Source: a virus (Duplodnaviria > Heunggongvirae > Uroviricota > Caudoviricetes). From it: a stretch of 23,684 bases of DNA. A model generated the notes under the pieces. That model did no database searches and was not told the DNA's origin. It saw only the letters and a list, made by a program, of their open reading frames with translations. This document shows, piece by piece, positions 3,406 through 23,356 of the stretch; the stretch's first letter is position 1; every line of letters begins with the position of its first letter. Location of the stretch: IMG/VR virus record IMGVR_UViG_3300028797_000103, positions 1 through 23,684 of that record, one strand, 5' to 3'. A program made the translations under genes and the position numbers.

Positions 3406-3416
3406 TGCAAATATAC
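3406..3416 (-). promoter_or_regulatory. Bacteroidota-type -7 promoter (GTATATTTGCA) for gp32
   Basis: Matches TAnnTTTG; identical 11-mer in four intergenic gaps. Confidence 0.8.
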
Positions 3417-3423
3417 TTCTTTT

Positions 3424-4452: not shown

Positions 4453-4453
4453 A

Positions 4454-7239: not shown

Positions 7240-7700
7240 TAGAAAAGTTTTTTAGATTGTGATACGTGTTTATCAAGTCCGTTTTGTTCTTCTATGAGTT
7301 CTAGAATCGCCGCCTTATCTTCAAGAGTTATAACATCCTTATACAGAGTCCTGTAATTAAAATCGAAGAATTCAGCAATTGCACAGAAAATCTGTATTAT
7401 ATTAAACTCGTCGTACTTTGTAAGAACATCCTTAAAGTGATAATAGATTTTGAACATATCGCGGCGTTCAATTTTTCCGGATGAATCTTTATACTTCTCA
7501 TAGAATTCAGAATTTTCATAAGCCTGCGATAATATGTCTCGCAGTCTTCTCTCAGTATACAGATCCTCTATATTTTCGCTCGTGCTTTCTTCAAATCTGC
7601 TTGCAAATATAGGGTCTATCGCGACAGCATTTTGGGTTAACCGTTCTGTTCCATATTCGGTATTATCAAAACTATTATTAAAAATTTTATCCTCAACCAT
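7239..7700 (-). CDS. Hypothetical 153-aa protein; C-terminal half resembles T4 gp33 late-transcription co-activator
   Basis: TAATG overlap with gp47 supports the gene; by-eye helical pattern IIQIFCAIAEFFDFNYRTLYKDVITLEDKAAILELIEEQNGL...KKLF. Confidence 0.4.
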   Translation of the reverse strand: MVEDKIFNNSFDNTEYGTERLTQNAVAIDPIFASRFEESTSENIEDLYTERRLRDILSQAYENSEFYEKYKDSSGKIERRDMFKIYYHFKDVLTKYDEFNIIQIFCAIAEFFDFNYRTLYKDVITLEDKAAILELIEEQNGLDKHVSQSKKLF

Positions 7701-7718
7701 AGCTGGGTATGATTACTT

Positions 7719-9296
7719 TTATTCAGGTAGGAACAAACCCTTCCCGGTTATTTTTATGAGTGGTGTTATTACATTATTCTGAACTTGCTGTTGTGGTTGT
7801 GTAGTTCCGCCATTATTGAAAAGGTCTATTCCTTGTGAAAATTCATCTTGCTGTGGTATAACAGCAACCGGGGAACCTTGCTCGAACTGCGGTTTTGAAT
7901 CCGTCTGAACAGTATATGTTGCCTTTCCCGGAGTTTTTGTTTGAGGGAACACAACACTCATTTCCTCAACACCGGTGTTAGGATCTTCTGTTATGCGAAG
8001 ATAATTAAAATCACAATTGAAGCGTTTTCTTTTATTCGCCTGAGGAGAAACGCGGTCATATATGCATTTCAAGAAATAGAACCCCTGAGCCATCATGAGT
8101 GCATCTGCAATTATACCGAACATCGCATCGACCGTGGCGCCAAGCGCAGATGATTCGGAAACCTGATTTGCATTAACGTCGTTAGTGTCAAACTGCGTTC
8201 TGTTTGTCTGCGTAGCAGTTATTATCGCCCATCCGTTTTTGGTACCCATAGCACGCAAGTCTTCAGCAAGCTGCTTGATTTTCATATAAGTGTTCTCTGT
8301 GTTTGGGTTCCTGTAATTCTTCATAATGTTGATATAATCAACAAATATGTTTTTGAATTTAAACGGTTTGTCCGGAGTTGACCTCCGGTCTTCTTCAGCC
8401 AGAAGAAAGCTTTCAAGTTCAATGACCGTTAATGTTGAAGTTGGAAACTCTTTGACGAGAAGTTCACCAAGAACACCCATAAAACCTCTTTTAAAGGAGT
8501 TTATTTTCTCCTTCATCATCGTTCCGTCCTCTGCGACTTTCTCATATTGTAGCGAATTGATTGAAAACATATTCGAACCAATTCTCGATGTTACCATTTC
8601 TTCTGGAAGCTCCAACGTTATGTATGCTGAGTTATGTCCCATTTTAACGGATTCCGCACAAAGGTTCTGAAGCCAAAGTGACTTACCAATCTTAGGCGCA
8701 CCGACAAAACAAGCCAAACAACCGTCGAACCACCCGCCATTCAAACACATGTCGATAAACGGGAATCCGCTTGAACGCCTCTTTAATTTTTTCTGACGAT
8801 GCGATTCTGCATCCCAGAAGTCCGAACCGTGATCTACAGTATCGGCAAATTCTATAACACATGTTTGGTTGAACATAGTTTTTATATGCTCAACCATCTC
8901 CTTTGCCTTTCCGCTTTCCATGCTTTCTTGATTTAACTTCAAGTATGCTGCGGCATCATATATTGCTTTCTTTACATTCTCTATAATTGCCCAATTCGTT
9001 GTTTCATCATAAAGCCAATCCTCTCCGTATGTATCAAGCATCTGCTTCTGAGAATACAACGCATCAACAATATCATCGGATAATTGATCGAGAACATTTT
9101 CCTGCCTTGTCAACTGCTTCATCTGATCTGCGGTTGGGGCGGAGTGATATTTAATCAAATAATCTTTAGCAAGCTTGAATGCAATTTGAACAGGCTTCGC
9201 AAAAAAGAAATCCGGTTCGAACTTAATAGCCAAAGACGGTTCCGATAATATATAGTGATAATAAATGTTTTGAATGTATGTATTTGTTGTATTCAT
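7719..9296 (-). CDS. gp41: Replicative DnaB-family helicase (T4 gp41-like); start moved to ATG at 9296
   Basis: Walker A GAPKIGKS, YITLEL, Walker B IFVDYIN, ITATQTNR, SESSALGATVDAMF. Confidence 0.93.
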   Translation of the reverse strand: MNTTNTYIQNIYYHYILSEPSLAIKFEPDFFFAKPVQIAFKLAKDYLIKYHSAPTADQMKQLTRQENVLDQLSDDIVDALYSQKQMLDTYGEDWLYDETTNWAIIENVKKAIYDAAAYLKLNQESMESGKAKEMVEHIKTMFNQTCVIEFADTVDHGSDFWDAESHRQKKLKRRSSGFPFIDMCLNGGWFDGCLACFVGAPKIGKSLWLQNLCAESVKMGHNSAYITLELPEEMVTSRIGSNMFSINSLQYEKVAEDGTMMKEKINSFKRGFMGVLGELLVKEFPTSTLTVIELESFLLAEEDRRSTPDKPFKFKNIFVDYINIMKNYRNPNTENTYMKIKQLAEDLRAMGTKNGWAIITATQTNRTQFDTNDVNANQVSESSALGATVDAMFGIIADALMMAQGFYFLKCIYDRVSPQANKRKRFNCDFNYLRITEDPNTGVEEMSVVFPQTKTPGKATYTVQTDSKPQFEQGSPVAVIPQQDEFSQGIDLFNNGGTTQPQQQVQNNVITPLIKITGKGLFLPE

Positions 9297-9331
9297 TAAG
9301 TATAAAAACAAAGTATATTCGCCTTTGTGTT

Positions 9332-9342
9332 TGCAAATATAC
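9332..9342 (-). promoter_or_regulatory. Bacteroidota-type -7 promoter (GTATATTTGCA) for the helicase-gp47-gp46 operon
   Basis: TAnnTTTG match, intergenic, 35 nt upstream of ATG. Confidence 0.8.
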
Positions 9343-9369
9343 TGATTTTTTATTTTTTAGAAAAGTTCT

Positions 9370-9831
9370 TTATTTAAGATATATTATGTTTTGATTTGTA
9401 GAACCCCTGAATAAAGCATCTTCATCTTTCAATTCTTCTATAAAAGGACCATCAACCAAAACATCTATTTCTCTGAGAATTGAATTTATTTTATCATCAT
9501 TCATAGCGACGAGTTCATCCATCGTAAACCCAGTATATATCCATATGTTTATGTCTGGTATCCTGTGTTTAAGTTGAGTAATGAGCTCAAGCACTTCATC
9601 TCTCCTATACATTGGGTCTCCGCCAGACAGTGTAACTTTATGATTGTCGTATTCTTCAACCAAATCTACAATTTCAGAAATCTCCATTTCTTTCCCGCCA
9701 TGAAAATCCCAAGATTCAGGGTTATGACAACCCTTGCATTTGTGTGCACACCCGGCAAAATAAACTGCGGTTCTCAAACCAGTCCCGTCGACAGCTGTAT
9801 CTGGTATTATATCTAATATTCTTGTTTTCAT
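9370..9831 (-). CDS. nrdG: Anaerobic ribonucleotide reductase activating enzyme (radical SAM)
   Basis: VDGTGLRTAVYFAGCAHKCKGCHNP (CxxxCxxC), TLSGGDP, DVLVDGPF, FRGSTNQ. Confidence 0.96.
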   Translation of the reverse strand: MKTRILDIIPDTAVDGTGLRTAVYFAGCAHKCKGCHNPESWDFHGGKEMEISEIVDLVEEYDNHKVTLSGGDPMYRRDEVLELITQLKHRIPDINIWIYTGFTMDELVAMNDDKINSILREIDVLVDGPFIEELKDEDALFRGSTNQNIIYLK

Positions 9832-10394
9832 AATAAAAATCTCCTTATATTACATCCTATTGTATTTCCCAACAAAACTATTCCCCAATATGCAAGAGCA
9901 TCAAGAGTGAACATCTTTGAAGAGAATATGTAAAAAGGTTCTGCAATCGAATGATAAAAACCAGATAGGATAAAAAGAGGAACGCCTATCAAAACCGGAA
10001 CAGGGTTAAAGGATGGAAAGTTTTTATATATGTATACAGATACATCAACAATCAATCCGCACATTATTGCCCGCCCCAATATCTCTAAAAATCCTTTCGA
10101 CATTTTTGTCGCTTCAACGGCAGTAAGCGAATCTACATCTCCAGTAAAAATCAAAGAAATCAACAAACATCCGATTAAATTTCCAAACAAAGTTTTAACG
10201 ACAAACCAAAGATCGTCTCTCTTAAATGTAGTTGAACCTACACACCCTGTATACAGTGGTGTGCCGAGACACAGTATTGTAATTAAACCGAATGAGAATA
10301 AAATCGCGCCAACAACTCCGCCGACTACGGCGTAAGCCCACGCACCGGCAGAAATGAGCACGCCGGATAAAATTGCTCTAGCAAACTGTTTCAT
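9828..10394 (-). CDS. Formate/nitrite transporter (FNT) family channel, 188 aa; start MKQFARAIL at 10394
   Basis: Six hydrophobic segments with FNT motifs AILSGVLISAG, FSFGLITI..LYTG, GNLIG, AIMCGLIV, FILSGFYHSIA, GNTIG; ATGA overlap with nrdG. Confidence 0.85.
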   Translation of the reverse strand: MKQFARAILSGVLISAGAWAYAVVGGVVGAILFSFGLITILCLGTPLYTGCVGSTTFKRDDLWFVVKTLFGNLIGCLLISLIFTGDVDSLTAVEATKMSKGFLEILGRAIMCGLIVDVSVYIYKNFPSFNPVPVLIGVPLFILSGFYHSIAEPFYIFSSKMFTLDALAYWGIVLLGNTIGCNIRRFLL

Positions 10395-10396
10395 TT

Positions 10397-10407
10397 TGCA
10401 AATATAC
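10397..10407 (-). promoter_or_regulatory. Bacteroidota-type -7 promoter (GTATATTTGCA) directly before the FNT start
   Basis: GTATATTTGCAAAATG on the minus strand. Confidence 0.75.
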
Positions 10408-10417
10408 AGAAAATATT

Positions 10418-10456
10418 TGAAAAATAGAGCCTCTATGAAAGAGGCTCGTTTTTTAT
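10418..10456 (-). terminator. Intrinsic terminator after nrdD
   Basis: Perfect 8-bp stem GAGCCUCU/AGAGGCUC with 5-nt loop, followed by UAUUUUU. Confidence 0.8.
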
Positions 10457-12768
10457 TTTTGAACTTCGTGCTGAATTCTGTCTTTGAACTCTGCTTGTTT
10501 TCCTGAGTTCCACCTGTCGACAGTAGAAACAAGATATCCTGTTATTCTTTGTAGAACAGACACGTTTTTGCTTCCACAAACCGGACAATACTTTTCTCCG
10601 TTTTCATCAACTGGAAATTCTTTTACGCTTTCGTGACAGCAATGGTCGCATCTTGCTACATTATGGTTAAAGCTTCCGTAACCGATGTCATATTTGTCCA
10701 TAAGGTCAACTATATTCATAACGGCTTCCGGATTCTTTTCAAGTTCACCATCGAGCTCAACGTAAAAAATGTGACCGGCCGGAGTAATCTTATGATAAGG
10801 AGCCTCGACTTCAGCTTTGTGTTTCGCTGAGCAGTGATACCAAACCGGAACGTGATTTGAGTTTGTATAATAATCCTTGTCAGTCACTCCTTTTATCTCT
10901 CCGTATTCCTTCTTGTCCACCTTAGTAAACTTTCCAGAAAGACCCTCAGCTGGTGTAGCAAAACAGCTATAATTGTGATTATACTTCTCTGAAAACTCCT
11001 TGCATCTTTTATCTATTAAAGAAACAATTTCAAGACCAAGCTTCTGAGCGTATTCTGATTCTCCATGATGTTTCCCAACAAGAGCAACTAAGGTCTCAGC
11101 AAGACCAATAAATCCAACACCCAAAGTGCCATGCTTAATGACTGGTTCAATTGTATCTTCCGGATCAAGTTTATCCGAACCGTTCCAGAGACCGCTCATA
11201 AGCAAAGGGAACTGCTTAGCCTTTGCTGTAGATTGGAATTGATATCTTTCATCAAGTTGCTTAGCTACTATATCGAGAGCTTTGTTCAGCTCATCAAAGA
11301 ATAACGATATTGTTTCTCTCTGAATATCTTTCTCAAGCACATCAGAAACGGAATGTTCGTCATATATACTTACAATCTTTCCGTCCTTTTCATAAAGAGA
11401 TGCAGTTGCCAAAGCAGCTTCAATTGCAAGCTTCGGAAGATTTATCGTGGTAAACGAAAGATTACCCCTTCCGATTGATGTTGGATATTCGCCAAACCTA
11501 TTTCCATAAACTCTTGTTCTGCAACCCATCGTTGCGACTTCGTGCACATATCTCTTTGGATCATTTTTATCCCACAGCGGGTCAACATTATATGACGCAT
11601 CAAGATTCAAGAAATTCGGGAAAAATCTTCTTGCAGAAACCTTACATGCGAGTTTATACAAATCATAATTTGGATCTTCAGGAAGATAGCTAACGCCGCG
11701 CTTTTTCTTCCAAATCTGGATAGGGAAAATTGCTGTGCTTCCATTGCCTACACCTTCGTATGTCGAATTTAAAATTTCCCTTATAACGCAGCGTCCTTCT
11801 GCCGACGTGTCGGTTCCATAGTTAACGGAGCTAAATACGACCTGATTTCCGCCACGGCTATGTATCTGATTCATATTATGAATAAACGCCTCCATAGCCT
11901 GATGGACTCTGTTAACGGTTTCGTTTATAGCGTGCTGCTTCCATCTTTCATCACCAGACAGCCCATCAAGTGACTTTACAATATAATCATCGATTTCTGC
12001 GTCTTTAAGGTTACTATGATCAATTCCGTGTAAAGCTGATATCTTATCAATCTCCTCTTTGTATGTAGCCCTAACATAAGGAGCAAGATAAAAATCAAAC
12101 GCAGGAATAGCCTGACCTCCATGCATTTCATTCTGAACAGTCTCCATAGATATACAAGCTATGATTGCTGCCGTCTCGATTCTCTTCGGAGCTCTGGACT
12201 CTCCATGCCCTGCTCTGAATCCATTTTCGAATATCCTGTCAAGCGGGTGCTGAATACAGGTTAAACTTTTTGTTGGATAGTAATCTTTGTCATGAATATG
12301 AACTATATTGTTGTCTACATATTCTTTGACATCTTCTGAAATAAGATAATTGTCTACAAAGGTCTTTGTCGTTTCACTCGCAAACTTCATCATCATTCCG
12401 GCTGGCGTGTCAGCGTTCATGTTTGCGTTCTCTCTGGTTATGTCATTTGCCTTTGTAGCCACAATCTCATCAAACATAACCTTTGTCTTCGATTGTCTTG
12501 CCACGTCTCTTCTGTGGCGTTCTTTTACGTATTCACGGGCTGCGTCTTTTCTAGTTGAACTCATCAGTCTTTTTTCAACGATATCGTGAATTTCCTCAAC
12601 TGATAACTGTTTTACATTTTTGCTTTCAACGTAGTCAATGATCTTTTCAATAATTTCTTCATCAACCCCCTTCTTTGTCCTTTGCATCGCAAGAGCGACA
12701 GCCTTTCTAATTTTCTCAGCGTCAAATTCAACAATTCGACCATCCCGCTTAATTACAGTTTCTAACAT
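10453..12768 (-). CDS. nrdD: Class III anaerobic ribonucleoside-triphosphate reductase with N-terminal ATP cone
   Basis: ATP cone VIKRDGRIVEFDAEKI; MGCRT; TPAEGLS; zinc site CDHC...CPVC; glycyl-radical loop RITGYL. Confidence 0.97.
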   Translation of the reverse strand: MLETVIKRDGRIVEFDAEKIRKAVALAMQRTKKGVDEEIIEKIIDYVESKNVKQLSVEEIHDIVEKRLMSSTRKDAAREYVKERHRRDVARQSKTKVMFDEIVATKANDITRENANMNADTPAGMMMKFASETTKTFVDNYLISEDVKEYVDNNIVHIHDKDYYPTKSLTCIQHPLDRIFENGFRAGHGESRAPKRIETAAIIACISMETVQNEMHGGQAIPAFDFYLAPYVRATYKEEIDKISALHGIDHSNLKDAEIDDYIVKSLDGLSGDERWKQHAINETVNRVHQAMEAFIHNMNQIHSRGGNQVVFSSVNYGTDTSAEGRCVIREILNSTYEGVGNGSTAIFPIQIWKKKRGVSYLPEDPNYDLYKLACKVSARRFFPNFLNLDASYNVDPLWDKNDPKRYVHEVATMGCRTRVYGNRFGEYPTSIGRGNLSFTTINLPKLAIEAALATASLYEKDGKIVSIYDEHSVSDVLEKDIQRETISLFFDELNKALDIVAKQLDERYQFQSTAKAKQFPLLMSGLWNGSDKLDPEDTIEPVIKHGTLGVGFIGLAETLVALVGKHHGESEYAQKLGLEIVSLIDKRCKEFSEKYNHNYSCFATPAEGLSGKFTKVDKKEYGEIKGVTDKDYYTNSNHVPVWYHCSAKHKAEVEAPYHKITPAGHIFYVELDGELEKNPEAVMNIVDLMDKYDIGYGSFNHNVARCDHCCHESVKEFPVDENGEKYCPVCGSKNVSVLQRITGYLVSTVDRWNSGKQAEFKDRIQHEVQK

Positions 12769-12826
12769 GAATTTTATATTATTGATTTTCTATCGTGCAA
12801 CGTGCACGTCAGATTATATGGTAGTT

Positions 12827-12834
12827 TATTTATC
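12827..12834 (-). promoter_or_regulatory. T4-late-like motif GATAAATA upstream of nrdD
   Basis: Intergenic; recurring motif. Confidence 0.5.
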
Positions 12835-12856
12835 CCTCGCGGGACAAATTGCGCGA

Positions 12857-12867
12857 TGCAAATATAC
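12857..12867 (-). promoter_or_regulatory. Bacteroidota-type -7 promoter (GTATATTTGCA) for nrdD
   Basis: TAnnTTTG match; fourth identical copy. Confidence 0.8.
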
Positions 12868-12998: not shown

Positions 12999-13778
12999 AT
13001 GAAATATTTCAAATACAAAGACTTAGGTGAAGCAACTCCAGAAGATGTCGATCTTTCTTCATTTGAGTTGAAAGACGAACTAAATAAAAAATTCTGGATT
13101 GATGGTAAATTAAATAGAAGCGTTAGGGTTGACCTTTTAAAAATTACAAGAGATTTTTTGGAAAATCTTGAAATAGAAGGAATATCCATTGAAGATATTA
13201 TATTCACCGGCTCATTGGCAAACTACAATTGGAACGAAGATTATTCAGACATAGACCTTCATATAGTATTAGATTTTAAAACAATTGGAGACGACGAAGA
13301 CCTTGTTAAAAAATATTTTGATGCAGTAAGAAAAAATTGGAACGATAGACATGATGAAATAAAGATACTTGGATATCCAGTTGAACTGTACGTCCAAGAC
13401 ATAAAAGAAAAACACACATCAAGCGGAGTATATTCAGTATTAAACGATGAATGGATTGAAAAACCATCAAAGGACAAAATAAAAAATGACAACCTCGACA
13501 ACGAAAAAATTTCGACAAAAGCGGCAGAGTTAATGACTGATATAGAAGACTTAGAAACAGAATTCGAATCAACAACAGATTACTGGGATTTATATATAAA
13601 AGCCGATGAGCTGTTCGACAAAATAAAATCAATAAGAAAAGATAATTTCACAAGCGGAAACAAAGAAATGTCAGAAGGAAATCTAATATTCAAAACATTA
13701 AGAAGAAACGGATATCTTGAACGACTAGTTGAACTAAAAACAAAATGTTACGACAAATCAAGAAGTATAGAAAAATAG
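12999..13778 (+). CDS. DNA polymerase beta superfamily nucleotidyltransferase
   Basis: hGS...DhDh motif IIFTGSLANYNWNEDYSDIDLHIV, third acidic strand PVELYVQD, helical C-terminal domain. Confidence 0.85.
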   Translation: MKYFKYKDLGEATPEDVDLSSFELKDELNKKFWIDGKLNRSVRVDLLKITRDFLENLEIEGISIEDIIFTGSLANYNWNEDYSDIDLHIVLDFKTIGDDEDLVKKYFDAVRKNWNDRHDEIKILGYPVELYVQDIKEKHTSSGVYSVLNDEWIEKPSKDKIKNDNLDNEKISTKAAELMTDIEDLETEFESTTDYWDLYIKADELFDKIKSIRKDNFTSGNKEMSEGNLIFKTLRRNGYLERLVELKTKCYDKSRSIEK

Positions 13779-13823: not shown

Positions 13824-13865
13824 AATAAAAATCGTCTCCTTGTTTTATCAAAGAGACGATTTATT
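13824..13865 (-). terminator. Intrinsic terminator of the MoxR/vWA cluster
   Basis: Minus-strand stem AUCGUCUCUUUG/CAAGGAGACGAU followed by UUUUAUU, just downstream of stop 13881. Confidence 0.8.
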
Positions 13866-13880
13866 AAAATGTTTGTGAAA

Positions 13881-16850
13881 TTAGATTCTCTTGAAAATTC
13901 TGATTCCAGACGCAGACTCAACAAGTCTGTAACCCCTCTGCTGTAGAGATTCTGCAAATGCAGATGCACCAGTAGCGGAAGATCTTGATTTGTATGCATC
14001 ATATGTATCTGCTGCGTCCAAAATCGTTTCGATGTCTGGAAGAATTGTTTTTATAATTCTAGCCTTGGCTTCGATCTTTTCTTTTGTTCCGAGAACATCA
14101 ACATCAGTCTTCTTCATAAGTTCTGAACCGGCTATATGTTTAAACGCTTCAAGAACATCTTTGTGGTCTGCAAGATATTCGAAGTCACCGGAGTTTACAA
14201 TTGTATTACCAAACTTAGCAACATCTCTAATATCCGCCACTATCGTATCAATGTTTCTAGATATTGTTCTCTTAAGAGAATTATCAGAAATGAGTCCAAG
14301 ATTCTTTCTTATTGTTCCGATTGCAATTCTCAATGAACTTGCATATCCTGTAACCTTTGTCACATCGGAAGTAAATGAATCCACATCAACACCGGATGGT
14401 CTAACTTCACTTTGGTCGATAACATCAGATAGCTTCTTCTGCTCTTCCTCTCTTGTTTTCAAATTTGTATTTAAATCTACAATGTAGTCATAAACCTTTC
14501 CCTTTAGAGGAGTTTCGCCCAATTCGTCGGCTATGTTGTTGTATTTCTGAATAAGGTCATCTAATGTTTTTGCAATGTCCTTAAAGTTTATCACAATCTC
14601 TTTATCTGAGAGTGAACCATCTCTTATAACAGTCATTTTGTCAACAACATTGAACAAATTAGAAACAAATTCAGAAACGTTATTATACGCTACATCGTTT
14701 GATTCTATTTCATCTGCACCATGTTTTGTATAGAAACCAAGTACACCGTCTATCAATGTTGGGATAAAGAGAAATACTTTTCTAACCTGATCCAAATCTA
14801 CACCAGCAGCAGATGCTTTATTTTTCTCAAAAGCGCCCTTTATGACGGCATAAGCATCTTGTCTCAAATTATCGTTTTCAAGGTTTTCCTTAACCTGCTT
14901 TATTGCGCCAAACACCTTTCCAATATTTTCAGAAAAGTCTCCAATTTCTCCCTGCAATCCAATCTTCGAAAGAGCTCTGCTTGCTACAGTCTGCATTCTC
15001 TTAATGTTTTCTTCCTTAACATTAACGTTAATTTTATATTCTTTAGCCATCTTGTCTGGGAAAAGAAGACAAACTGTTGCAGGAGCAGCTTTATCTGAAG
15101 ATAGATTCGAAGGTTCGTATGATCCTCTTTTTGCTGATGTACCGGACAACTTGACATCCATAATTGATTTTATTATATCAACCAATTCATCCTTGCTCCC
15201 TTGTTCTATGTCATCAACCGTATACGTAGGACAGGTATCCTTTAAACGTATACCACAGCCAAATGCAATACACTTCAAGAACTTTTCGCTCAAAGAATTT
15301 ATCAACTTCTCGTTAAGAGGGTTGTGTTTTTCCGCCGCAAGAACAAAATTGTTTCTACAGGTGCTTATGTCGTTTGAATTTATATCCTTAAAGAAAACAG
15401 TTTTTCTATCATCTCCAGCATATCCCTTAAAATTGTAATTAAGTTCGCATACGAATTTTTCTTTTTTGGGATCTTCATTTAAGGTCCAAGAACCTCTTCC
15501 GAACAAAATGTCCATAACCCTATCAAAAGTTTCATCTTCTGATGCTCTATTTAGGTCAAAAACAGATGATATATATCTTCTTGAATAATCAGACGCACTC
15601 TTTGTAAGATGGTTGCAGAGCCACCAATATGCACAAGAGTATACCCATTTTGCAACAGTCGTGTCTTCATCCTTCGTTACTTCATTAGGAGTCATACCAA
15701 ACTCTTTAAAGGAACCAAACATCCTTTCATAATAATCGTTTCTGTCCTTTATTGTATTATAAATCGTGTTAGAGTCTGATACGCTTGTAAGATTTCTAGA
15801 GTCATCCTTCAGGTAAACAAGAGTTGGGTATTTTGCAGATGGAGTATAAGCATAAACCATACTTATAAGACCATTCTTTGTTGTGAATATCTTAATACCT
15901 TTAAATTTTCCTCTTACGCTAAGATCTCTTGCGATTTCAAACGGATTGTCGATAACGTCTACATCAGAGTCATTTATGTTACCCCAAGGAATAGTTATTA
16001 TTGGGTCTATGACATCAAAAAGGATTCTCTTGTTAATGTTTTTGACGATTTTTGCATTTCCACTTAACTCCTGTCCATGCCTTGCTGGTATCAATGCAGA
16101 CAACTTTGTCCCCATTTCTTCATTAAGGGATGATATATACTTTTCGCCAAGATTGAATCTTTTCTTAGCCTCTATTAAAAGTTCACTTTTCATATCTTGA
16201 TTTTCAGATTTACTTTCATTTGCATCACCAGAAAGACGTTTAATGTACTTATTAGCCTGAAGCTGATTAAATTTGTTAATCATCTTTATTTCAACATCTC
16301 CTGTAACAACGCCCGGAGCATTCTCATAATCTATTGGTCTTGGAATGTTTCTAACAACTACACTTCCATCAACCTTCTTTGGGAATCCAACTGGAAATAG
16401 TTTAACGTCATTCTTTCCAAATAGATTTGACAATTCTATATTTCCTATCAGTTCATCAAATATAACCCCCGTTTCGCACACAGCAACAACACCAGCTATG
16501 TTTTCATTTGTTATGTCTAGGTGTAGAACAACAGTTTCTTCGTCTGTTATGAAATAAGATTCTTCTGTATTTTCACAAGAGAAAAGATTAGCAACTGGAC
16601 TTACATCCGGAAGGTTTTCTTTCATTGTTTTGACAATTTCACCGAACACTTCGTCGTATTTTCCGGTTCTTCTTGCAAAAGCAATATCGGCAAGTCTAGC
16701 TGCTCGCTTCTTTTCTTCATCTGAAGCTGAATCTGCCTGCTTAAATATTTCAACGTCGTCTACGGTTTTTTCACCAGACTGGATTTCGTCATCCAAGTCA
16801 TAGAGATCCAAACTAGTTACACGTCCTTCTGTTATTTTAAGTTTCTTCAT
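13881..16850 (-). CDS. Large (~989 aa) hypothetical protein; N-terminal ~200 aa paralogous to the C-terminal domain of the vWA protein; probable start MKKLKITEG
   Basis: Long ORF; the ATG at 16868 overlaps a GATAAATA motif, so ATG 16850 is preferred. Confidence 0.8.
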   Translation of the reverse strand: MKKLKITEGRVTSLDLYDLDDEIQSGEKTVDDVEIFKQADSASDEEKKRAARLADIAFARRTGKYDEVFGEIVKTMKENLPDVSPVANLFSCENTEESYFITDEETVVLHLDITNENIAGVVAVCETGVIFDELIGNIELSNLFGKNDVKLFPVGFPKKVDGSVVVRNIPRPIDYENAPGVVTGDVEIKMINKFNQLQANKYIKRLSGDANESKSENQDMKSELLIEAKKRFNLGEKYISSLNEEMGTKLSALIPARHGQELSGNAKIVKNINKRILFDVIDPIITIPWGNINDSDVDVIDNPFEIARDLSVRGKFKGIKIFTTKNGLISMVYAYTPSAKYPTLVYLKDDSRNLTSVSDSNTIYNTIKDRNDYYERMFGSFKEFGMTPNEVTKDEDTTVAKWVYSCAYWWLCNHLTKSASDYSRRYISSVFDLNRASEDETFDRVMDILFGRGSWTLNEDPKKEKFVCELNYNFKGYAGDDRKTVFFKDINSNDISTCRNNFVLAAEKHNPLNEKLINSLSEKFLKCIAFGCGIRLKDTCPTYTVDDIEQGSKDELVDIIKSIMDVKLSGTSAKRGSYEPSNLSSDKAAPATVCLLFPDKMAKEYKINVNVKEENIKRMQTVASRALSKIGLQGEIGDFSENIGKVFGAIKQVKENLENDNLRQDAYAVIKGAFEKNKASAAGVDLDQVRKVFLFIPTLIDGVLGFYTKHGADEIESNDVAYNNVSEFVSNLFNVVDKMTVIRDGSLSDKEIVINFKDIAKTLDDLIQKYNNIADELGETPLKGKVYDYIVDLNTNLKTREEEQKKLSDVIDQSEVRPSGVDVDSFTSDVTKVTGYASSLRIAIGTIRKNLGLISDNSLKRTISRNIDTIVADIRDVAKFGNTIVNSGDFEYLADHKDVLEAFKHIAGSELMKKTDVDVLGTKEKIEAKARIIKTILPDIETILDAADTYDAYKSRSSATGASAFAESLQQRGYRLVESASGIRIFKRI

Positions 16851-17550
16851 CGTGTGTGTATTTATCATTTAATTAAAAGTGAATGACACTCTTTGTGATA
16901 TTTATCCTTAATTGAACACAGAAATTCTCCCAAACTCTATGTTCTTTCCATTTCTAAGTCTATTCTCAATTTGCTTTACCCTTGAAAGCGGAATTTTGTT
17001 AGACAGAAAACCAAGATCAACGTTTCCTGTAACAGTTGTCGGGAAGTTTTTATCGTTCAATAATTTTGGTAAAAATTCAACCTCAAAATCACCGTCTATT
17101 ACTTTTGGAAAACCATCAGGAAATTCTTCAACTGTATCACAATCATCTACAGATATGTTTCCGATGATCTTATCGACAATATATTTTGAGCACACGTATA
17201 ACAAATCGACAAATTTACTGTCTTTTATATCAGTATGAAGTATTATCGTTTCGTCGTCTGTTATGAAATATGTGTTCTCGTCATTTTCACATTTAAATTC
17301 GCTTTCAACAGGAGAAACATTTGGAAATCGTTCTTTCATAACGTTGATGATTTCACCAAAAACTTCCTCATACTTTCCGGTTCTTCTTGCAAAAGCAAGA
17401 TCTGCCAATCTTGATGATTTCTTTTTTTCTTCATCACTGAGACTATCATGCTTTTTAAAGTATTCTATATCATCTACAGAAATACGCCCAGCTTGAATTT
17501 CGTCATCCAAATCATAATTATCAAGATTTTCTACTCTACTTTCATTAACG
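16230..17550 (-). repeat. Diverged direct duplication (~0.6 kb units, 714-nt offset) spanning the junction of two genes
   Basis: Identical 25-mer at 16660-16684 and 17374-17398; identical 17-mer at 16540-16556 and 17254-17270; shared peptides YDLDDEIQ, SDEEKK, AFARRTGKY, YFITD. Confidence 0.92.
16859..16906 (-). promoter_or_regulatory. Two tandem T4-late-like GATAAATA motifs (16899-16906, 16859-16866)
   Basis: Both lie in the 57-nt intergenic gap, oriented toward the 989-aa gene. Confidence 0.6.
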
Positions 17551-19622
17551 TCGGATGAATCATCATCGTCCAAAGAATTTTGTATACGAAGTTTATTGAC
17601 AACCATAAATTTAGAATCGGCTGCAATAGAATTTCTAACATCTTCCTTTACCTCAGACATCGTCATAGAATAAGAGTCGTCATATATTAAATAGAACATT
17701 TTCTCTGTGCATGATGGATTCAATCCATCTGCTTCTATGCTGTCTCCTGTTCCGGTGATACCAGAATGGTCTGAAAGTATAATGATGAAATCGATTTCTC
17801 CGTCTAATTCTCCTCTATCTGTATAGTTTTTGTATATATGTTTGTATACCGCGTCAGGAGACGTTCCACCGCTCCTTATCTTAACTCCGTTATCATTAAA
17901 TATATCATATGCGTCTTCTGGACTCATATCAATATATCTGTCTCTATCGTAAACGCTATCAGCAAACAGATGGAAATCTACACTTTGGAAGTTATTTTGC
18001 ATCAGGAGCTCAGAAACTTCTTTAAGCATCGATATAACAAATCCTATAGCAGAACCAGACGTATCAAGATAAACCAGACACTTTTTCAAAGAATCTTTTG
18101 TTCTATATGAATTCTTCATATAGAGTCCAGATCTTGATGCGACATTTTTGTTGAAATGTCTATATTCTTTATTCGTTGAATAGGATGAGATGTAATCCTG
18201 AAGCTCTCCTTTCCAGTCAATGTCACTATCAACTGCCTCTTTAAGAGAGGCAATCATATTTTCGTTTGATTCTTTAATTCCTTCGTTTGCCGCCGGGACA
18301 TTGGCTCGTTCATTGCTTCTCATCTGAGCACCAGTAGCCTTTAACGCGTTTAGGACATCGTTATCATTTCCCTCTACACCATAATCGTCCTTTGCATTAG
18401 TTTCCGCATTAAGTTCATCCAATATTTCTTTAGCTTCTTCATCTGTTAATACTTTATCGGAGAATTTTCCGGACTTATCTCCGGTATTTCTCATAGCGAC
18501 TTTATCGCTTCCCCCATATTCACTTTCGGCTTTTTCTAAAGTATCCTCATATTCTTCTGCGGTCATCTTCTGTGAACCAGACGATCCGCTTCCGCCTCCA
18601 TTTTGATTAGAACTTCCAGTGTCGTTGCCGCCATCAGAACCAGAATCATTGCCAGATTCTCCACCGTTTCCTTCTGAATCGCTTCCATTAGAATCATTTC
18701 CCTTACCGGAACCAGGCTCTATTTCATCTGAAGAATCGGAACCACCATTATTCGAATTTGAATTTTCTCCATCCTTTCCCCCATTTTCTCCATTTTCTCC
18801 ATTTGAATCCCCACCTTTGTTGGAACTTGAAGAATCTTCTCCGGATTTATCACCATCGCCCTTGCCTTCACCGGAGGAACCTCCGCTATTCTCAGAATCA
18901 GACTGTGATCCATCCGAAGAATCGGAACCACCTTTCTGTCCTTGATTTGCGTCATCGGAACCACCTTGCTGACTTTGTCCTCCTTGCTGACCTTGTTGAT
19001 TCTGTCCTCCTTGCTGACCTTGTTGATTCTGTTGATTCTGTTGATTCTGTTGATTCTGTTGTCCACCCTGATTATTTTGTGAACCCTGATTATTCTGCTG
19101 TTGCTGTGGAGGATTATTCAATTCAAAAGGTGATGGACCATTTTGAGCACCACCGGACTGTGGTTCTGGTTCATAATCCTTAAATATCTGATTGATATAA
19201 TCTACAATTTTTTGATAAGCTTCTTCATTATTCATTGATGTAACAATCATCTGGTTGATTGCTTTTATGTAATCCTCTTTATTACGAACATCATATGTAG
19301 AAGCACTTTCATGAAGAGCTTTTATTATAGAAACATCTATATCCGGAATCTCATATTCAATATCAGGTTTTACGCCATGGTGATTAAACATGTACTCTGC
19401 ATACAATTTTCCAAAATAGAACCCCCTGAGATACTCAGGATCCTCCCTATTCAATTTAGGATCGTTTAGGTTTGGTTCATCCTGAGGTGAACCATCTGGC
19501 TGTTGGTTATCTTCATTTTCCGGAAAAATTTTATCAACGATTATACGTGCTGCTTCAGCTGGTTCAAACCCTTTTCCAAGAACAACTCGTATACTATTCT
19601 CGCTTTCTTTAGTCAATCTCAT
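16908..19622 (-). CDS. vWA (MIDAS) domain protein, DUF2201 C-terminal-like, with long Q/G/S/N linker and extra C-terminal duplicated domain; probable start ATG 19622
   Basis: DIDWKGELQDYIS precedes CLVYLDTSGS (DxSxS), SGGTS, FIIILSD; adjacent to MoxR ATPase and HExxH genes. Confidence 0.85.
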   Translation of the reverse strand: MRLTKESENSIRVVLGKGFEPAEAARIIVDKIFPENEDNQQPDGSPQDEPNLNDPKLNREDPEYLRGFYFGKLYAEYMFNHHGVKPDIEYEIPDIDVSIIKALHESASTYDVRNKEDYIKAINQMIVTSMNNEEAYQKIVDYINQIFKDYEPEPQSGGAQNGPSPFELNNPPQQQQNNQGSQNNQGGQQNQQNQQNQQNQQGQQGGQNQQGQQGGQSQQGGSDDANQGQKGGSDSSDGSQSDSENSGGSSGEGKGDGDKSGEDSSSSNKGGDSNGENGENGGKDGENSNSNNGGSDSSDEIEPGSGKGNDSNGSDSEGNGGESGNDSGSDGGNDTGSSNQNGGGSGSSGSQKMTAEEYEDTLEKAESEYGGSDKVAMRNTGDKSGKFSDKVLTDEEAKEILDELNAETNAKDDYGVEGNDNDVLNALKATGAQMRSNERANVPAANEGIKESNENMIASLKEAVDSDIDWKGELQDYISSYSTNKEYRHFNKNVASRSGLYMKNSYRTKDSLKKCLVYLDTSGSAIGFVISMLKEVSELLMQNNFQSVDFHLFADSVYDRDRYIDMSPEDAYDIFNDNGVKIRSGGTSPDAVYKHIYKNYTDRGELDGEIDFIIILSDHSGITGTGDSIEADGLNPSCTEKMFYLIYDDSYSMTMSEVKEDVRNSIAADSKFMVVNKLRIQNSLDDDDSSDVNESRVENLDNYDLDDEIQAGRISVDDIEYFKKHDSLSDEEKKKSSRLADLAFARRTGKYEEVFGEIINVMKERFPNVSPVESEFKCENDENTYFITDDETIILHTDIKDSKFVDLLYVCSKYIVDKIIGNISVDDCDTVEEFPDGFPKVIDGDFEVEFLPKLLNDKNFPTTVTGNVDLGFLSNKIPLSRVKQIENRLRNGKNIEFGRISVFN
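18560..19160 (-). repeat. Low-complexity Q/N/G/S linker with tandem repeats
   Basis: tgttgattc x4 (19021-19056); exact 27-mer x2 (18976-19029); G/S/D/N-rich tract following in the protein. Confidence 0.9.
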
Positions 19623-20334
19623 AATGCTCAATTAACCCCTTACTTTTTAAATAATCGCGATAACCCTCAACAGCAGCCCTAAATCCTTCCTTAAACAAAT
19701 CGCTTGTTTTTTGAACCTCTTCTGTATCATCACCCGGTTTATCCGGTATCTGATTATAAATCGTCTGCCATGGTAAATTTTTAAAATTTTCATCATAGCA
19801 ACCATTCATTTTCTCAGTCATTCCTTTATAATCATCACGAATATGATTTTCTATATAATAGTTCACTTGGTAATCCATTGCTCTATTCTCTCTATCCTGG
19901 TTTGGTTTATGAATAGTTTTTGGAGAGCAGTGACCATATACTATATGCATAACCTCGTGAATTAAAACATATTCCATACACATAACAGGAGTTGCAAAAT
20001 CGAATTTTCCAGTAGAAGCATCAACTGAACCAACTCTAGCTATTGTTCTTTCAACCCAAGCAGGATTTATAAAGAAGCTGTGACCGTTTGTTGCCATTGT
20101 GTCAATCTTTGGGTGATCCGTATAGAATATATCTTTACTTTCCAAATATCTGAACCATTGAGGAAACTCACTTCTTATGTTACTGAGTGCAGCATCAATA
20201 ACCCTATCAACGGTTTTTATATCAACAGTACCACCTTCGGGGCGAAGCCAAATAAGATTTCGCCCCGAACGGTTTGTTGTTATTACACCGTTTCCACCAC
20301 CGGATGATTCCAATAATATTTTTTCAATAATCAT
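19609..20334 (-). CDS. Putative zinc metallopeptidase (DUF2201 N-terminal-like, HExxH)
   Basis: DTMATNG..FFINP, YVLIHEVMHIVYGH, NRAMDYQVN. Confidence 0.85.
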   Translation of the reverse strand: MIIEKILLESSGGGNGVITTNRSGRNLIWLRPEGGTVDIKTVDRVIDAALSNIRSEFPQWFRYLESKDIFYTDHPKIDTMATNGHSFFINPAWVERTIARVGSVDASTGKFDFATPVMCMEYVLIHEVMHIVYGHCSPKTIHKPNQDRENRAMDYQVNYYIENHIRDDYKGMTEKMNGCYDENFKNLPWQTIYNQIPDKPGDDTEEVQKTSDLFKEGFRAAVEGYRDYLKSKGLIEHYEID

Positions 20335-20353
20335 CTCAATGCTTTAATTATTT

Positions 20354-22495
20354 TTAACCAAGCCAATTCTGTGCTGTTGCTACACCAAACACCTTCGCTA
20401 TAGCTGTTCTTACGAAATGTTTTTCTTCATCAGCAGATTTAACTTCACTGGGTTTAGCATAACCACATCTCTGCGTTAAACAATCCAAGAAAGTTTGCGC
20501 TTTATCACCACCCTGTTGATTTCCCTTTGTCTTGTCTATCAACTTACCAAAAGCATAAATCAATTTTGCAAGACCATCAGTTGGAATACAGTTTTCAAAT
20601 CCATTAAGAAGATTCTGTATTGCAGAATTAAGAGAAACATTCGAAAAATATTCCTCGATAGCATCTTTGCTTGTGTAGAAAGCGGTAGTAAACTTATCGG
20701 CGACCTCCTGCCTTGGTGTATAAGCATCACCCTTTTCAAGCATTTCTTTCAAATCTGTAAACGAAAGTCCGTTCATCTTCATTGTTAGATAATCGATTAC
20801 CTTCTCTGCCAATTTTGTTCCAAGACCCATGTAAATTGTCGACGCAACAAGTTCATCCGACAATATGTCGAAAATATAATCATCATAGTGTTTTCCTTGG
20901 ACAATTGTAATCTTTCCACTGTCAATAAGATCGTCTATGATGATTCTTATGTCTTGAGAAAGCTGCTCCCATCTTCTTGGACAAGCTTGAACAAGAGTAC
21001 AATCGAGATCCTGAGGTCTACTCATATCTTGTCTGGCAAGTGCATAATATGAATCTGGATTTGCGTCTATAAACTCTATAAAGTTTTTATTCACTTTACT
21101 AAAATTCGGCATGCTATCTGCTTTGCCAAGAGCCCAATCTTTCCACTCGCTATATTTTGGAACAAAATTGCACATTTTAAAACGACCAGTTGCGGCAGAA
21201 TCAAATCCTATGAGTCTTAATGAACCAGTACCTTTTCTTGTTATGTCACTGTATCTGTTGGATGCGCAAACAACAACCCATTTTGTTCCAAGTCTCAAAT
21301 CTGAGTTCGAACCAATTTGTCTACTCAACGGCATATCAAATATCGATGCCATACCAGCATCTGACATTCTTACAAACTCGTCGATAAAGAAGAATCCGCC
21401 ATCACCATCGCCATCACACAAACCATCGTCATTTGGAATTGCTCCGTTTGCTAAATAAATTCTCTGATTTAATTCATCTTTTGATATAGAATTATCAAAT
21501 TCATAAACCGGCATCCAAGATTTTGGAAGATCTTTTATGATTTTGTCACCGAGGGCACCAACTGCGCCGTTCATTTCTTCAGTGCCCTTTGAAATTGCAC
21601 TTTTGAAAATTTCTTTTTGTCTCTTGTTTCTATACTCTCTAGAAACCTGAGCTGGCATTGTAAACGCCTCTGGTTCAATATTTGATGCCATAACAGTCAA
21701 AACAGGAACATTTCCATGTTCTGCTGCAACAGCTTTAATTATAGATGTTTTTCCGATACCTGGTGCACCCCATATAAACAATGGCCACTCTCTATCAACC
21801 TGACCTTTAACTCTAGCTCTATATGCAAGATGAAGCATTCTGCACAAAATCTCAGTATTAACATCAACAAACTTCTCGTTCGTTAGTACAAGGACGTCTT
21901 CCTTCTCTGAACCGTAAACTGTTCCCTGTTTTACGTTTTCCTGCGACTCGTTTAATCTCATCGGGTTTCCGTTTTTATCAAACTCATGATCACAATATAT
22001 TGCTGAACCGGCATAAGCATAGTCAGAAACCTTTGGTTCAAAAGATCTGGCAGTTACACCAAGGTCATCAGCAAAATTAACCATATCTTCTGATGGAATA
22101 AACCCAATAGCGTCGTTTTCGGATGCTGCTAACATTCCATTAACTGGGTGGATTGCTCTTGCAATCTCACCGTTTTCCTGCTGGAACCAAATTCTGTTCT
22201 TAGCTTTTATTATTCTTGAAATTACATAATCAACTGCACCTTTTATTGCGCTGCCTATTTTCTTGCCAAATTTACCAAACTCACTTGCGGCGCCCTTTAC
22301 GATATCGCTGAGTTTTCCTTCATTTACGAGTTTAAGAACACTTTCATCTATCTTATCCAAAGACGTTACTTTATTCTTGTCAACGTCCTTTATAACACCA
22401 CTTTTGAATCTAACGATGTATCTTCCTGCATTCTCGTTAAGAAGCTCACAATTTACGGTTTGATTTCCATTTGAACCAATTATATACTTTGCCAT
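20354..22495 (-). CDS. MoxR-family AAA+ ATPase with ~200-aa N-terminal extension
   Basis: Walker A IWGAPGIGKT, Walker B FFIDEF, sensor-1 VCASNR, Arg finger DSAATGRF, sensor-2-like CPRRW. Confidence 0.9.
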   Translation of the reverse strand: MAKYIIGSNGNQTVNCELLNENAGRYIVRFKSGVIKDVDKNKVTSLDKIDESVLKLVNEGKLSDIVKGAASEFGKFGKKIGSAIKGAVDYVISRIIKAKNRIWFQQENGEIARAIHPVNGMLAASENDAIGFIPSEDMVNFADDLGVTARSFEPKVSDYAYAGSAIYCDHEFDKNGNPMRLNESQENVKQGTVYGSEKEDVLVLTNEKFVDVNTEILCRMLHLAYRARVKGQVDREWPLFIWGAPGIGKTSIIKAVAAEHGNVPVLTVMASNIEPEAFTMPAQVSREYRNKRQKEIFKSAISKGTEEMNGAVGALGDKIIKDLPKSWMPVYEFDNSISKDELNQRIYLANGAIPNDDGLCDGDGDGGFFFIDEFVRMSDAGMASIFDMPLSRQIGSNSDLRLGTKWVVVCASNRYSDITRKGTGSLRLIGFDSAATGRFKMCNFVPKYSEWKDWALGKADSMPNFSKVNKNFIEFIDANPDSYYALARQDMSRPQDLDCTLVQACPRRWEQLSQDIRIIIDDLIDSGKITIVQGKHYDDYIFDILSDELVASTIYMGLGTKLAEKVIDYLTMKMNGLSFTDLKEMLEKGDAYTPRQEVADKFTTAFYTSKDAIEEYFSNVSLNSAIQNLLNGFENCIPTDGLAKLIYAFGKLIDKTKGNQQGGDKAQTFLDCLTQRCGYAKPSEVKSADEEKHFVRTAIAKVFGVATAQNWLG

Positions 22496-22498
22496 TGT

Positions 22499-23116
22499 TT
22501 ATTGTTTGTTATTTTCTTTAAAAATCCATGAAAACATTAAATTATCTGTAAGTTGCTCATCTAATGCAGCAACAAACTTATCCTTTTCTCTCTGGGAGAG
22601 AGACATCTGCCCGGCGTTTATCTGACGTCTCACTTCGTCATTAAATGCGTCTGTGTGATCTTCACCATCAGAACTCCAAGACTCATTTCTGTTTATGAAC
22701 TCGACGAGTTTTCTTGCCATAGTTCTTCGTTTAGTTGTATTCGGTGTATATGATAAACCATCAATGGAATCAAACGCCATTGAGATTGCCGTATACATTT
22801 CATCTGTTCTGTTGGCTGAAGCTTCGTATAGTTTCCTACCGAAGCATTTTCTTCCCTCTATGACCGAAGACGGAGTAACTTCACCACCAAGCTTTGCGAT
22901 TTCCTCCTGCTTTTTCACAATCTGATTTTTCTTATCAGTTATAGCAGCGTTTGATGCAGACTCTATATTAACAATATCCTGCTCCAATTTGGTGACATCA
23001 TTATTTAAAGTCTGTATCTTTGCTTCAACAGCCTGCTTCTGTGCTGCCTCGGCATCTGGTGTTGCGTCGTCTTCGTTAACTTTTTTCTTACCTTTGAAAT
23101 ATCTTATTAAAATCAT
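22499..23116 (-). CDS. Hypothetical 205-aa coiled-coil protein; start moved to ATG 23116 (MILIRYFKGKKKVNE)
   Basis: GATAAATA 26 nt upstream; heptad-like VEAKIQTLNNDVTKLEQDIVNI; 3-nt gap to the MoxR start. Confidence 0.75.
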   Translation of the reverse strand: MILIRYFKGKKKVNEDDATPDAEAAQKQAVEAKIQTLNNDVTKLEQDIVNIESASNAAITDKKNQIVKKQEEIAKLGGEVTPSSVIEGRKCFGRKLYEASANRTDEMYTAISMAFDSIDGLSYTPNTTKRRTMARKLVEFINRNESWSSDGEDHTDAFNDEVRRQINAGQMSLSQREKDKFVAALDEQLTDNLMFSWIFKENNKQ

Positions 23117-23142
23117 ATATGAATAGATAACGTCGGTTTTAT

Positions 23143-23169
23143 TATTTATCCAACTAAATGCGATAAATA
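23143..23169. promoter_or_regulatory. Back-to-back divergent GATAAATA motifs (minus 23143-23150; plus 23162-23169)
   Basis: tatttatc-caactaaatgc-gataaata, each 23-26 nt upstream of an ATG. Confidence 0.65.
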
Positions 23170-23192: not shown

Positions 23193-23333
23193 ATGAAGAA
23201 ATGTCCAAACTGTGGAACAGGTGGAACCACTATAAATTCAAATGTTGAAAATAAAAAACCAGCGCAATCGTCTAAGGTTACAACGATAAAGGGCAAAAAT
23301 ACACAGAAAAGTTTTAGAAAAACAAAGATCTGA
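23193..23333 (+). CDS. Small basic 46-aa protein with CxxC (MKKCPNCGTGGTTINSNVENKKPAQSSKVTTIKGKNTQKSFRKTKI), absent from the ORF track
   Basis: Own upstream GATAAATA, A-rich start context, stop inside a terminator hairpin, fills an otherwise empty gap. Confidence 0.65.
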   Translation: MKKCPNCGTGGTTINSNVENKKPAQSSKVTTIKGKNTQKSFRKTKI

Positions 23334-23356
23334 GAAATCTCAGATCTTTTTTATTT
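23324..23356. terminator. Likely bidirectional intrinsic terminator
   Basis: Perfect 11-bp stem aaagatctgag-aaat-ctcagatcttt with A/T tracts on both sides, between convergent ORFs. Confidence 0.85.

Follow-up and report, generated by a model that had tools for sequence, protein, structure and literature searches.

A MoxR-like ATPase and metallopeptidase-vWA module with late-type promoters and a split giant vWA protein in a tailed bacteriophage

Introduction

The coupling of a MoxR ATPase with a metallopeptidase-von Willebrand factor A (vWA) protein is among the most widespread phage gene couples without an experimentally established function, being found in N4-like phages, many jumbo phages, the Lak megaphages and metagenomic contigs by the hundred. 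What such a couple does for a phage, and on which client it would act, is a question raised in an elaborated form by five co-oriented genes of a Caudoviricetes virus, here called genes A to E, which encode a MoxR-like AAA+ ATPase (B), a zinc metallopeptidase (C), a vWA protein (D) and two further proteins (A and E). The window analysed here is the first 23,684 nucleotides (nt) of the 151,684-nt IMG/VR virus record IMGVR_UViG_3300028797_000103 (G000). CheckV rates this record as 38% complete, which places this rumen phage in roughly the 400-kb class, and the DNA sequencing runs that contain the locus are bovine gut metagenomes; no RNA run containing it is listed.

The MoxR and metallopeptidase-vWA pair of jumbo phages has already been described, and a virion-assembly role with proteolytic processing was proposed for it by reference to the MoxR/vWA tail chaperone of Acidianus two-tailed virus (ATV) (Iyer et al. 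2021, Viruses 13:63; PMC7824862). Here we find that the catalytic motifs, the promoter class and the conserved linkage of genes A to E best fit a late-transcribed, elaborated MoxR AAA+ ATPase and metallopeptidase-vWA module that would serve as an assembly or maturation chaperone-protease, a reading in which we have moderate confidence.

Results

Five genes form a compact unit bounded by a promoter-like motif and hairpins

The five open reading frames (ORFs) lie on the minus strand at 13881-23116 and are separated successively by 3 nt (A-B), 19 nt (B-C), a 14-nt overlap (C-D) and 39 nt (D-E). The unit and its boundaries are laid out as follows.

23324-23349, no single strand: bidirectional hairpin terminator with an 11-bp stem and a T-run on both strands; upstream boundary
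23143-23150, minus strand: late-type motif GATAAATA (then ATAAAA), 26 nt before the ATG of gene A
22499-23116, minus strand: gene A, 205 amino acids (aa); coiled-coil N-terminus and a C-terminal domain without a known family
20354-22495, minus strand: gene B, 713 aa; MoxR-like AAA+ ATPase
19609-20334, minus strand: gene C, 241 aa; predicted DUF2201_N-type zinc metallopeptidase with HExxH
16908-19622, minus strand: gene D, 904 aa; vWA protein
16899-16906, minus strand: second late-type motif GATAAATA, in the 39-nt D-E gap, 30 nt before gene E
13881-16868, minus strand: gene E, 995 aa, or 989 aa with the ATG start at 16850
13829-13862, minus strand: intrinsic terminator-like hairpin of 14 pairs, 19 nt past the stop of gene E; downstream boundary

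An initial annotation of this DNA had described a tightly packed, co-oriented five-gene unit bounded by a motif and a terminator, and the ORFs, the motif and the hairpins were all found. The upstream hairpin also closes the upstream gene at 23382-23747 and a small plus-strand ORF, and a hairpin stands at the equivalent place in two related phage loci, L009 and L010. Pfam gave nothing for gene A beyond sub-threshold coiled-coil matches. A longer, TTG-started version of gene A reaching 23296 is not credible, because the start at 23116 is where the alignments with its L010 (203 aa) and L009 (297 aa) relatives begin.

Catalytic and metal-binding motifs identify the ATPase, peptidase and vWA components

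By its motifs, and by a fold that matches many AAA+ chains at Z about 10, the product of gene B falls within the AAA+ superfamily. It matches PF00004 at 26.2 bits (cut-off 21.2) and phrog_1297 at E = 1.4e-21, and an alignment of 26 homologues shows no variation in its Walker A motif (GAPGIGKT at 243-250), Walker B residues D372-E373, N413, R438 or R507. The top structural matches of the AAA+ core were NorQ (Z 10.8, 225 aligned residues, root-mean-square deviation 4.3) and CbbQ2 (Z 10.4); Foldseek ranked MCM, sigma-54 activators and NorQ, and a profile of B searched against PDB sequences gave only P-loop-level matches. Strain differences within B sit at third codon positions, a sign of purifying selection.

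Gene B encodes, in order, an N-terminal beta-barrel (1-45), a Lys-rich segment (60-90), an alpha/beta domain (90-150), the AAA+ core (about 210-470) and a helical C-terminal domain. In an AlphaFold2 (AF2) model with a predicted local distance difference test score (pLDDT) of 71.8, the barrel is five-stranded, the Lys-rich segment is poorly predicted and the core carries two beta-hairpin inserts, which the secondary-structure string of the model places after strand 2 (a long hairpin, 279-324) and before strand 4 (a small one, 392-402). The initial annotation had singled out the N-terminus as an unusual leader. An N-terminal extension of ~230 aa with a Lys/Gly-rich segment is indeed present, but it is a conserved set of domains shared by the 26 family members, with invariant residues also within the first 50 aa, and it is a conserved folded region rather than a removable propeptide. 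A search of 5.8 billion proteins placed B in a family of 650-750-aa homologues encoded on contigs of up to 404 kb.

The product of gene C scored 20.3 bits against PF13203 (DUF2201_N), under the cut-off of 23.2, and its counterparts in L009 and L010, presumed orthologues, pass that cut-off at 31.6 and 31.3 bits; C itself matches phrog_1314 at E = 1.8e-17. Residues H126-E127-x-x-H130, H135, N150, D154 and N158 are all kept, in columns conserved in at least 69 of 74 homologues. The profile together with the intact HExxH and ligand positions points to a DUF2201_N metallopeptidase. In all three phages (the window, L009 and L010) the stop codon of C overlaps the ATG of D, by 14 nt in the window, which indicates translational coupling of the two genes. 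A programmed frameshift fusing C and D was rejected, as each of the three phages has an ordinary ATG/stop overlap and no slippery run.

Gene D encodes an N-terminal domain, a low-complexity stretch, a vWA domain and a copy of a domain that we call X, of which gene E holds a second copy.

About 18573-19160, minus strand: acidic Gln/Asn/Gly/Ser/Asp-rich low-complexity stretch of D
About 17643-18095, minus strand: vWA domain of D, with a metal ion-dependent adhesion site (MIDAS) formed by D520-x-S522-x-S524, T587 and D618
16911-17549, minus strand: X copy 1, at the end of D
16278-16835, minus strand: X copy 2, in E, 52% identical to copy 1

D itself has no Pfam match, and its L009 orthologue reaches 19.7 bits against PF09967 (DUF2201 VWA-like), under the cut-off of 26.4. 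A profile built from region 440-700 of D and 22 relatives matched PDB vWA proteins at E = 3.3e-12. The five MIDAS residues lie in invariant or near-invariant columns, and the GGGT motif typical of the aligned vWA family is present. The identity first proposed for the locus, a MoxR-like AAA+, vWA and metallopeptidase module, is accordingly borne out by catalytic and MIDAS motifs, profile matches and conserved neighbours.

Within D, the Gln/Asn-rich part (about 18,990-19,060) varies in repeat length between strains, with a 3-aa deletion in a 99%-identical variant and 8- and 36-nt indels in contigs from other samples.

The module is conserved as a linked set in distant relatives

Neither a megablast search with the module nor a tblastn search with the ATPase returned a match in the phage collection at 1e-5, and a single-sequence scan of viral contigs with the ATPase found no relative. 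A profile scan of viral contigs retrieved related loci where the single-sequence scan had not. Among the resulting set of 80 IMG/VR loci containing the ATPase, a peptidase domain is present in 72 and a vWA domain adjoins in at least 70; L009 and L010, at 25-40% identity, retain the complete order of upstream gene, A, B, C and D/E. The linkage of these genes extends to relatives. Homologous pairs were also found in Vibrio phage SBP1, PA5oct, phiR1-37 and the Lak megaphages, and peptidase matches in the Lak megaphages and Bacillus phage G.

In the 72 loci with a peptidase domain, the domain is fused to the vWA protein in 43 and the two are individual genes in about 30, so a split peptidase and vWA partner is a common variant. 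The partner had been called unusual for being split in two; the separate genes are real, and the arrangement is shared by the about 30 related loci.

An ancestral vWA protein is divided into genes D and E between the copies of a duplicated domain

The equivalent of D and E together is a single ORF in L009 (1690 aa) and L010 (1902 aa). X is a domain of about 190 aa, present as one copy in L009 and as two tandem copies in L010; in the window one copy ends D and the other starts E. D and E are one ancestral vWA protein, split between the two copies of the duplicated X domain. The description of two large unknown genes added to the module therefore does not hold: D is the vWA protein itself, and E is its split-off C-terminal part.

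D and E share a reading frame, with three TAA codons and a late-type motif between them. The D-E junction (16545-16973) is spanned by a contig of an independent study with 8 differences and no gaps, and a 99%-identical variant of D terminates at the same residue. In another phage lineage, a D-type protein (871 aa, 35% identity) and an E-type protein (989 aa, 42% identity) are seen as individual protein sequences; the former, P0134, has the same domains as D through X and no E-type tail. Taken together, the bridging contig, the shared end of the variant and the separate D- and E-type proteins elsewhere show that the split is real and maintained. Read-through of TAG linking D to E was considered and rejected, as all three intervening stops are TAA and TAG occurs in the module genes neither as a stop nor in frame.

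After X copy 2, E continues for about 800 aa without a known family. Relatives of E numbered only 21 in an exhaustive search: most of them, at 1276-2082 aa, are fused to a vWA domain, and one of 989 aa stands alone. For the E tail, ESM Atlas yielded no usable match, and the large late proteins g25, g36, g50, g70 and others received no named function from PHROGs.

X is a recurrent partner that may bind the client

Among the related loci, iterated profile searching turned up 25 ORFs that contain X. About ten distant loci encode X as a protein on its own, 134-445 aa long, from a gene that stops a few nt short of the peptidase-vWA gene; in a huge-phage clade X is fused to the vWA protein, and in L011 and L012 the peptidase, vWA, X and tail all lie within one 1602-aa ORF. 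That X is adjacent in some phages and fused in others argues for a functional link with the vWA protein. X is built on a core repeat of about 22 aa with the pattern GxPxxVxGxFxxxxNxLxxL in 19 sequences. No Pfam model or match was found for it. An AF2 model (pLDDT 81) weakly resembles receptor L domains and leucine-rich repeat (LRR) proteins (Z ≤5.8), there is a weak match to the IpaH LRR (E = 0.0066), and we describe X as at most weakly LRR-like on this modelling. Complex prediction for the copy ending D with the copy starting E returned no verdict, at a score of 0.00. X may be the client-binding part of the module.

An unrelated viral contig encodes a 936-aa protein of six tandem X domains (L034:13378-16188, plus strand), ~3.4 kb past the start of the ATPase gene.

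The composition of D and E could also be read structurally, with D and E forming a fibre or adhesin made of the vWA domain, the LRR-like domain and the long tail, and with B and C acting as its assembly chaperone and maturation protease, as proposed for ATV tail growth. In the L009 orthologue (L009:12710-17782, plus strand), residues 103-161 are collagen triple-helix repeats (PF01391, E = 6.4e-25) at the position where D has its acidic low-complexity stretch; vWA and LRR-like domains are typical binding modules, and X structurally matches LRR proteins and receptor L domains best; a late-type motif stands before E itself; and ATV p618 interacts with the filament-forming protein p800 (PMC4124505). 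Against this, neither D nor E has a tail-fibre or structural family match in Pfam, PHROGs or NCBIfam, the fold matches of X are weak, and the vWA proteins of most related loci are tailless and short, at about 320-680 aa, so a fibre cannot be the general client of the family. We consider the fibre reading unlikely.

The changing form of this third partner, stand-alone in some related loci and fused in others, also bears on a further alternative, in which the module is a device for conflict or take-over (for example counter-defence, superinfection exclusion or targeted host proteolysis) that is merely expressed late and uses the LRR-like domain as a target sensor. LRR-like domains are classic recognition modules, and the N4-like pair lies among middle (replication) genes, both of which fit such a device. 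The late-type promoter and the placement within the structural block described below speak against it, and the neighbours examined included no known defence or anti-defence family, PADLOC not having been run. We likewise hold a conflict function to be improbable here.

The promoter class places the module with the structural genes

In an unbiased count of all 8-mers in the 100 nt before every ORF of the 151.7-kb record, GATAAATA was the most enriched upstream 8-mer, with 11 of 17 copies upstream of genes, and AATAAATA ranked second (14 of 26 copies). RATAAATA followed by a short A-rich stretch stands 19-26 nt before the ATG of structural genes, including those for the portal (phrog_213, E = 3e-46) and for tail-tube-like, head-closure and tape-measure-like proteins. 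L009 and L010 share the promoter motif of gene A, at the same position, with protein identities of only 25-40%. The module is the end of a 37-kb stretch (13.9-50.5 kb), mostly minus-strand, with tail-tube, baseplate-hub and head-closure genes. The T4-type late promoter TATAAATA is read by gp55, gp33 and the clamp. Set beside that promoter, which has T as its first base, the RATAAATA motif of this record, only 38% complete, begins with G or A, and we treat it as a candidate for that type at most.

A second class, the motif GTATATTTGCA that the initial annotation termed host-type, has 22 exact copies in the record, four of them in the window and all preceding replication-type genes, and none between 13.9 and 50.5 kb. 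It precedes genes for DNA polymerase B, NAD ligase, the RecA-like operon, dUTPase, a GMP-reductase-like protein, DnaJ, a methylase, a DnaB-like helicase, NrdD and gp32; upstream of gp32 and nrdD both motif classes occur. At no more than one mismatch, GTATATTTGCA has zero sites in 13881-23169 and six sites in 3406-12867, against 0.54 expected by chance, in keeping with the earlier claim that the module is free of the host-type sites. A relative of this early motif with two mismatches lies upstream of the module at 23292-23302 (minus strand), and we give it no weight because the window count of 15 at two mismatches is at chance (10.6 +/- 3.4).

Late control had been claimed for the module. Because the RATAAATA class marks structural genes, and because the motif before gene A is kept in relatives, we regard late control as well supported, as an inference from promoter class.

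Head-protease processing and virion packaging

The initial annotation went beyond late expression to propose that the module proteins are packed in the head, trimmed by the prohead protease, and then either remodel the capsid contents or are injected as a chaperone-protease acting on host targets. We counted the cleavage motifs [LI]xE, [LIV]xE, [LIVT]xE[AGS] and [SAG]xE (T4-type and phiKZ-type). Counts in the five proteins were within 1.5 standard deviations of shuffled sequences and no higher than in the other proteins of the phage, and the cleavage sites proposed before the two X copies are not conserved in L009 or L010. Prohead-protease-like motifs in every product are thus matters of chance frequency, and maturation by a head protease loses its footing, given that the motifs are not conserved and that the N-terminus of the ATPase consists of conserved domains. 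Judged by these motifs, the module proteins are probably not substrates of a T4- or phiKZ-type prohead protease.

Packaging itself has some points in its favour. The late-type promoter and the location in the structural block would suit a virion protein, as would the long acidic disordered stretch of D, since some internal head proteins have such stretches. The ATV virion has the MoxR ATPase p618 as a major component, and p618 is bound by its vWA partner p892 (PMC4124505). The record of the PA5oct homologue of the ATPase bears an 'ESI-MS/MS' note, from a phage in which 93 gene products are linked to particles, seven of them classed as virion-unrelated enzymes (PMC7318152). On the other side stand the unconserved, chance-level cleavage motifs and the folded N-terminus of the ATPase with no propeptide; the PA5oct peptidase-vWA record bears no mass-spectrometry note, the phiR1-37 homologues g304 and g305 are not flagged structural although their neighbouring genes are, and the N4-like pair is located with replication genes. 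Virion packaging or injection is possible only by analogy with ATV p618 and the PA5oct note; packaging together with prohead-protease trimming appears doubtful.

A narrower variant is a particle-borne, ATP-driven remodelling or protease machine, in which D and E would be in the virion and the ATPase and peptidase would travel along, acting after assembly or on entry. We think this quite improbable. Were it true, the module would be a tailed-phage counterpart of the extracellular, MoxR-dependent morphogenesis of ATV, and proteins found in the particle would make it the first MoxR machine carried by a tailed phage.

Neighbouring genes and other features of the record

The small plus-strand ORF upstream of gene A (window 23193-23333) encodes 46 aa beginning MKKCPNCG. 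It has its own GATAAATA at 23162-23169 (plus strand), 23 nt before its ATG and divergent from the promoter of gene A, and it runs up to the bidirectional terminator; L009 and L010 conserve this DNA together with the start of the ORF. On the other side of the module, 3' of E, lies a convergent 259-aa gene (window 12999-13778, plus strand) with a late-type motif 22 nt before its ATG. The remaining genes of the window encode gp32, Rad50/Mre11-like proteins, a DnaB-like helicase, NrdG, a formate/nitrite-transporter-family protein and NrdD.

Elsewhere in the record, the phage encodes a full-length DnaJ (J domain, CxxCxGxG and C-terminal domain; G000 109784-110827) and a WYL_2 Sm-like barrel protein (G000 69089-69373), both preceded by early-type promoters. 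An array of 31 tRNA genes lies at about 122,300-149,200 of G000 (L006:19326 to L008:6171) and includes a CTA-anticodon tRNA, which would read TAG, at L007:4850-4923. TAG is the stop codon in just five of 110 ORFs of at least 100 aa. The convergent 259-aa gene is one of these five, and read-through would add 69 codons to it.

Discussion

These results bring us back to what the five genes would do. In the reading we prefer, a late-transcribed assembly or maturation chaperone-protease, four functional components would be spread over the five genes and might associate physically. B would be the ATPase motor, presumably a hexamer, and the vWA/MIDAS domain of D its adaptor, as in NorQ-NorD and CbbQ-CbbO. 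C would contribute what is normally the zinc-peptidase half of a fused partner, and its translation would be coupled to that of D. The X domain and long tail, comprising the end of D and all of E and forming one giant protein in the nearest relatives, would be the client-binding or scaffold part. Most probably, such a machine would use ATP to remodel a late, virion-assembly client and would cleave it to a limited extent, rather than act in replication or early take-over.

Several observations weigh against this reading. B scores 21.2 bits against AAA_5 (PF07728), under the cut-off of 22, and has no match to AAA_3 (PF07726) and none in NCBIfam, and its matches to NorQ and CbbQ2 are tied with Clp-type ATPases (ClpC and Hsp104), so the structural matches do not prove membership of the MoxR subfamily. 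In the B family, 18 of 26 members match AAA_5 at E ≤ 0.01, and distant homologues (E = 1e-13 to 1e-18) carry PF07726 (AAA_3) and PF20030 (bpMoxR); for B the name MoxR-like appears appropriate on these profiles, short of strict MoxR subfamily membership. The low-complexity stretch of D and the tail of E have no recognisable family. The pair of an N4-like Vibrio phage adjoins helicase and DNA polymerase genes, so a morphogenetic role is not general for the family. Late timing is read from motif class, and the client is one that we infer.

What appears to be new in this locus is X, an additional component that recurs, and the giant adaptor, which exists in fused, duplicated and split forms, together with the extended ATPase and a clear assignment to a promoter class. 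A defined promoter class links the MoxR and peptidase-vWA couple to structural genes in one lineage. The recurrent LRR-like third component, neighbouring the vWA protein or fused to it, would be a natural candidate for client recognition, and the natural series from fused through duplicated to split shows which pieces are separable.

The closest known system is the jumbo/N4-like phage pair (PHROG 1297 with PHROG 1314; DUF2201_N with DUF2201), which has the same ATPase, HExxH peptidase and vWA/MIDAS families. The ATPase here is 713 aa long, compared with about 370-430 aa in that pair, and adds the conserved N-terminal barrel, the Lys-rich segment and the alpha/beta domain as well as a large helical region at the C-terminus. 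The peptidase has a gene of its own, translationally coupled, instead of being part of the usual fused partner, and the vWA protein adds the acidic low-complexity stretch, the X domain, the 800-aa tail and the two-gene split; the coiled-coil gene A and the late-type promoter are further extras. The p618/p892 couple of ATV is likewise a virus-encoded MoxR/vWA couple and is tied to particle morphogenesis. ATV, by contrast, is an archaeal spindle virus whose couple has no peptidase partner, and it is for ATV that presence in the virion is shown. Among cellular MoxR-vWA couples (NorQ-NorD, CbbQ-CbbO and RavA-ViaA), NorQ and CbbQ2 head the structural matches of the core of B, level with Clp-type ATPases, and the MIDAS of the partner vWA domain is complete in D. 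In the solved NorQ-NorD and CbbQ-CbbO systems, the ATPase is the docking site of the vWA domain, which in turn holds an acidic client residue. Those three couples mature or repair metabolic enzymes without a peptidase, whereas the phage module described here has one.

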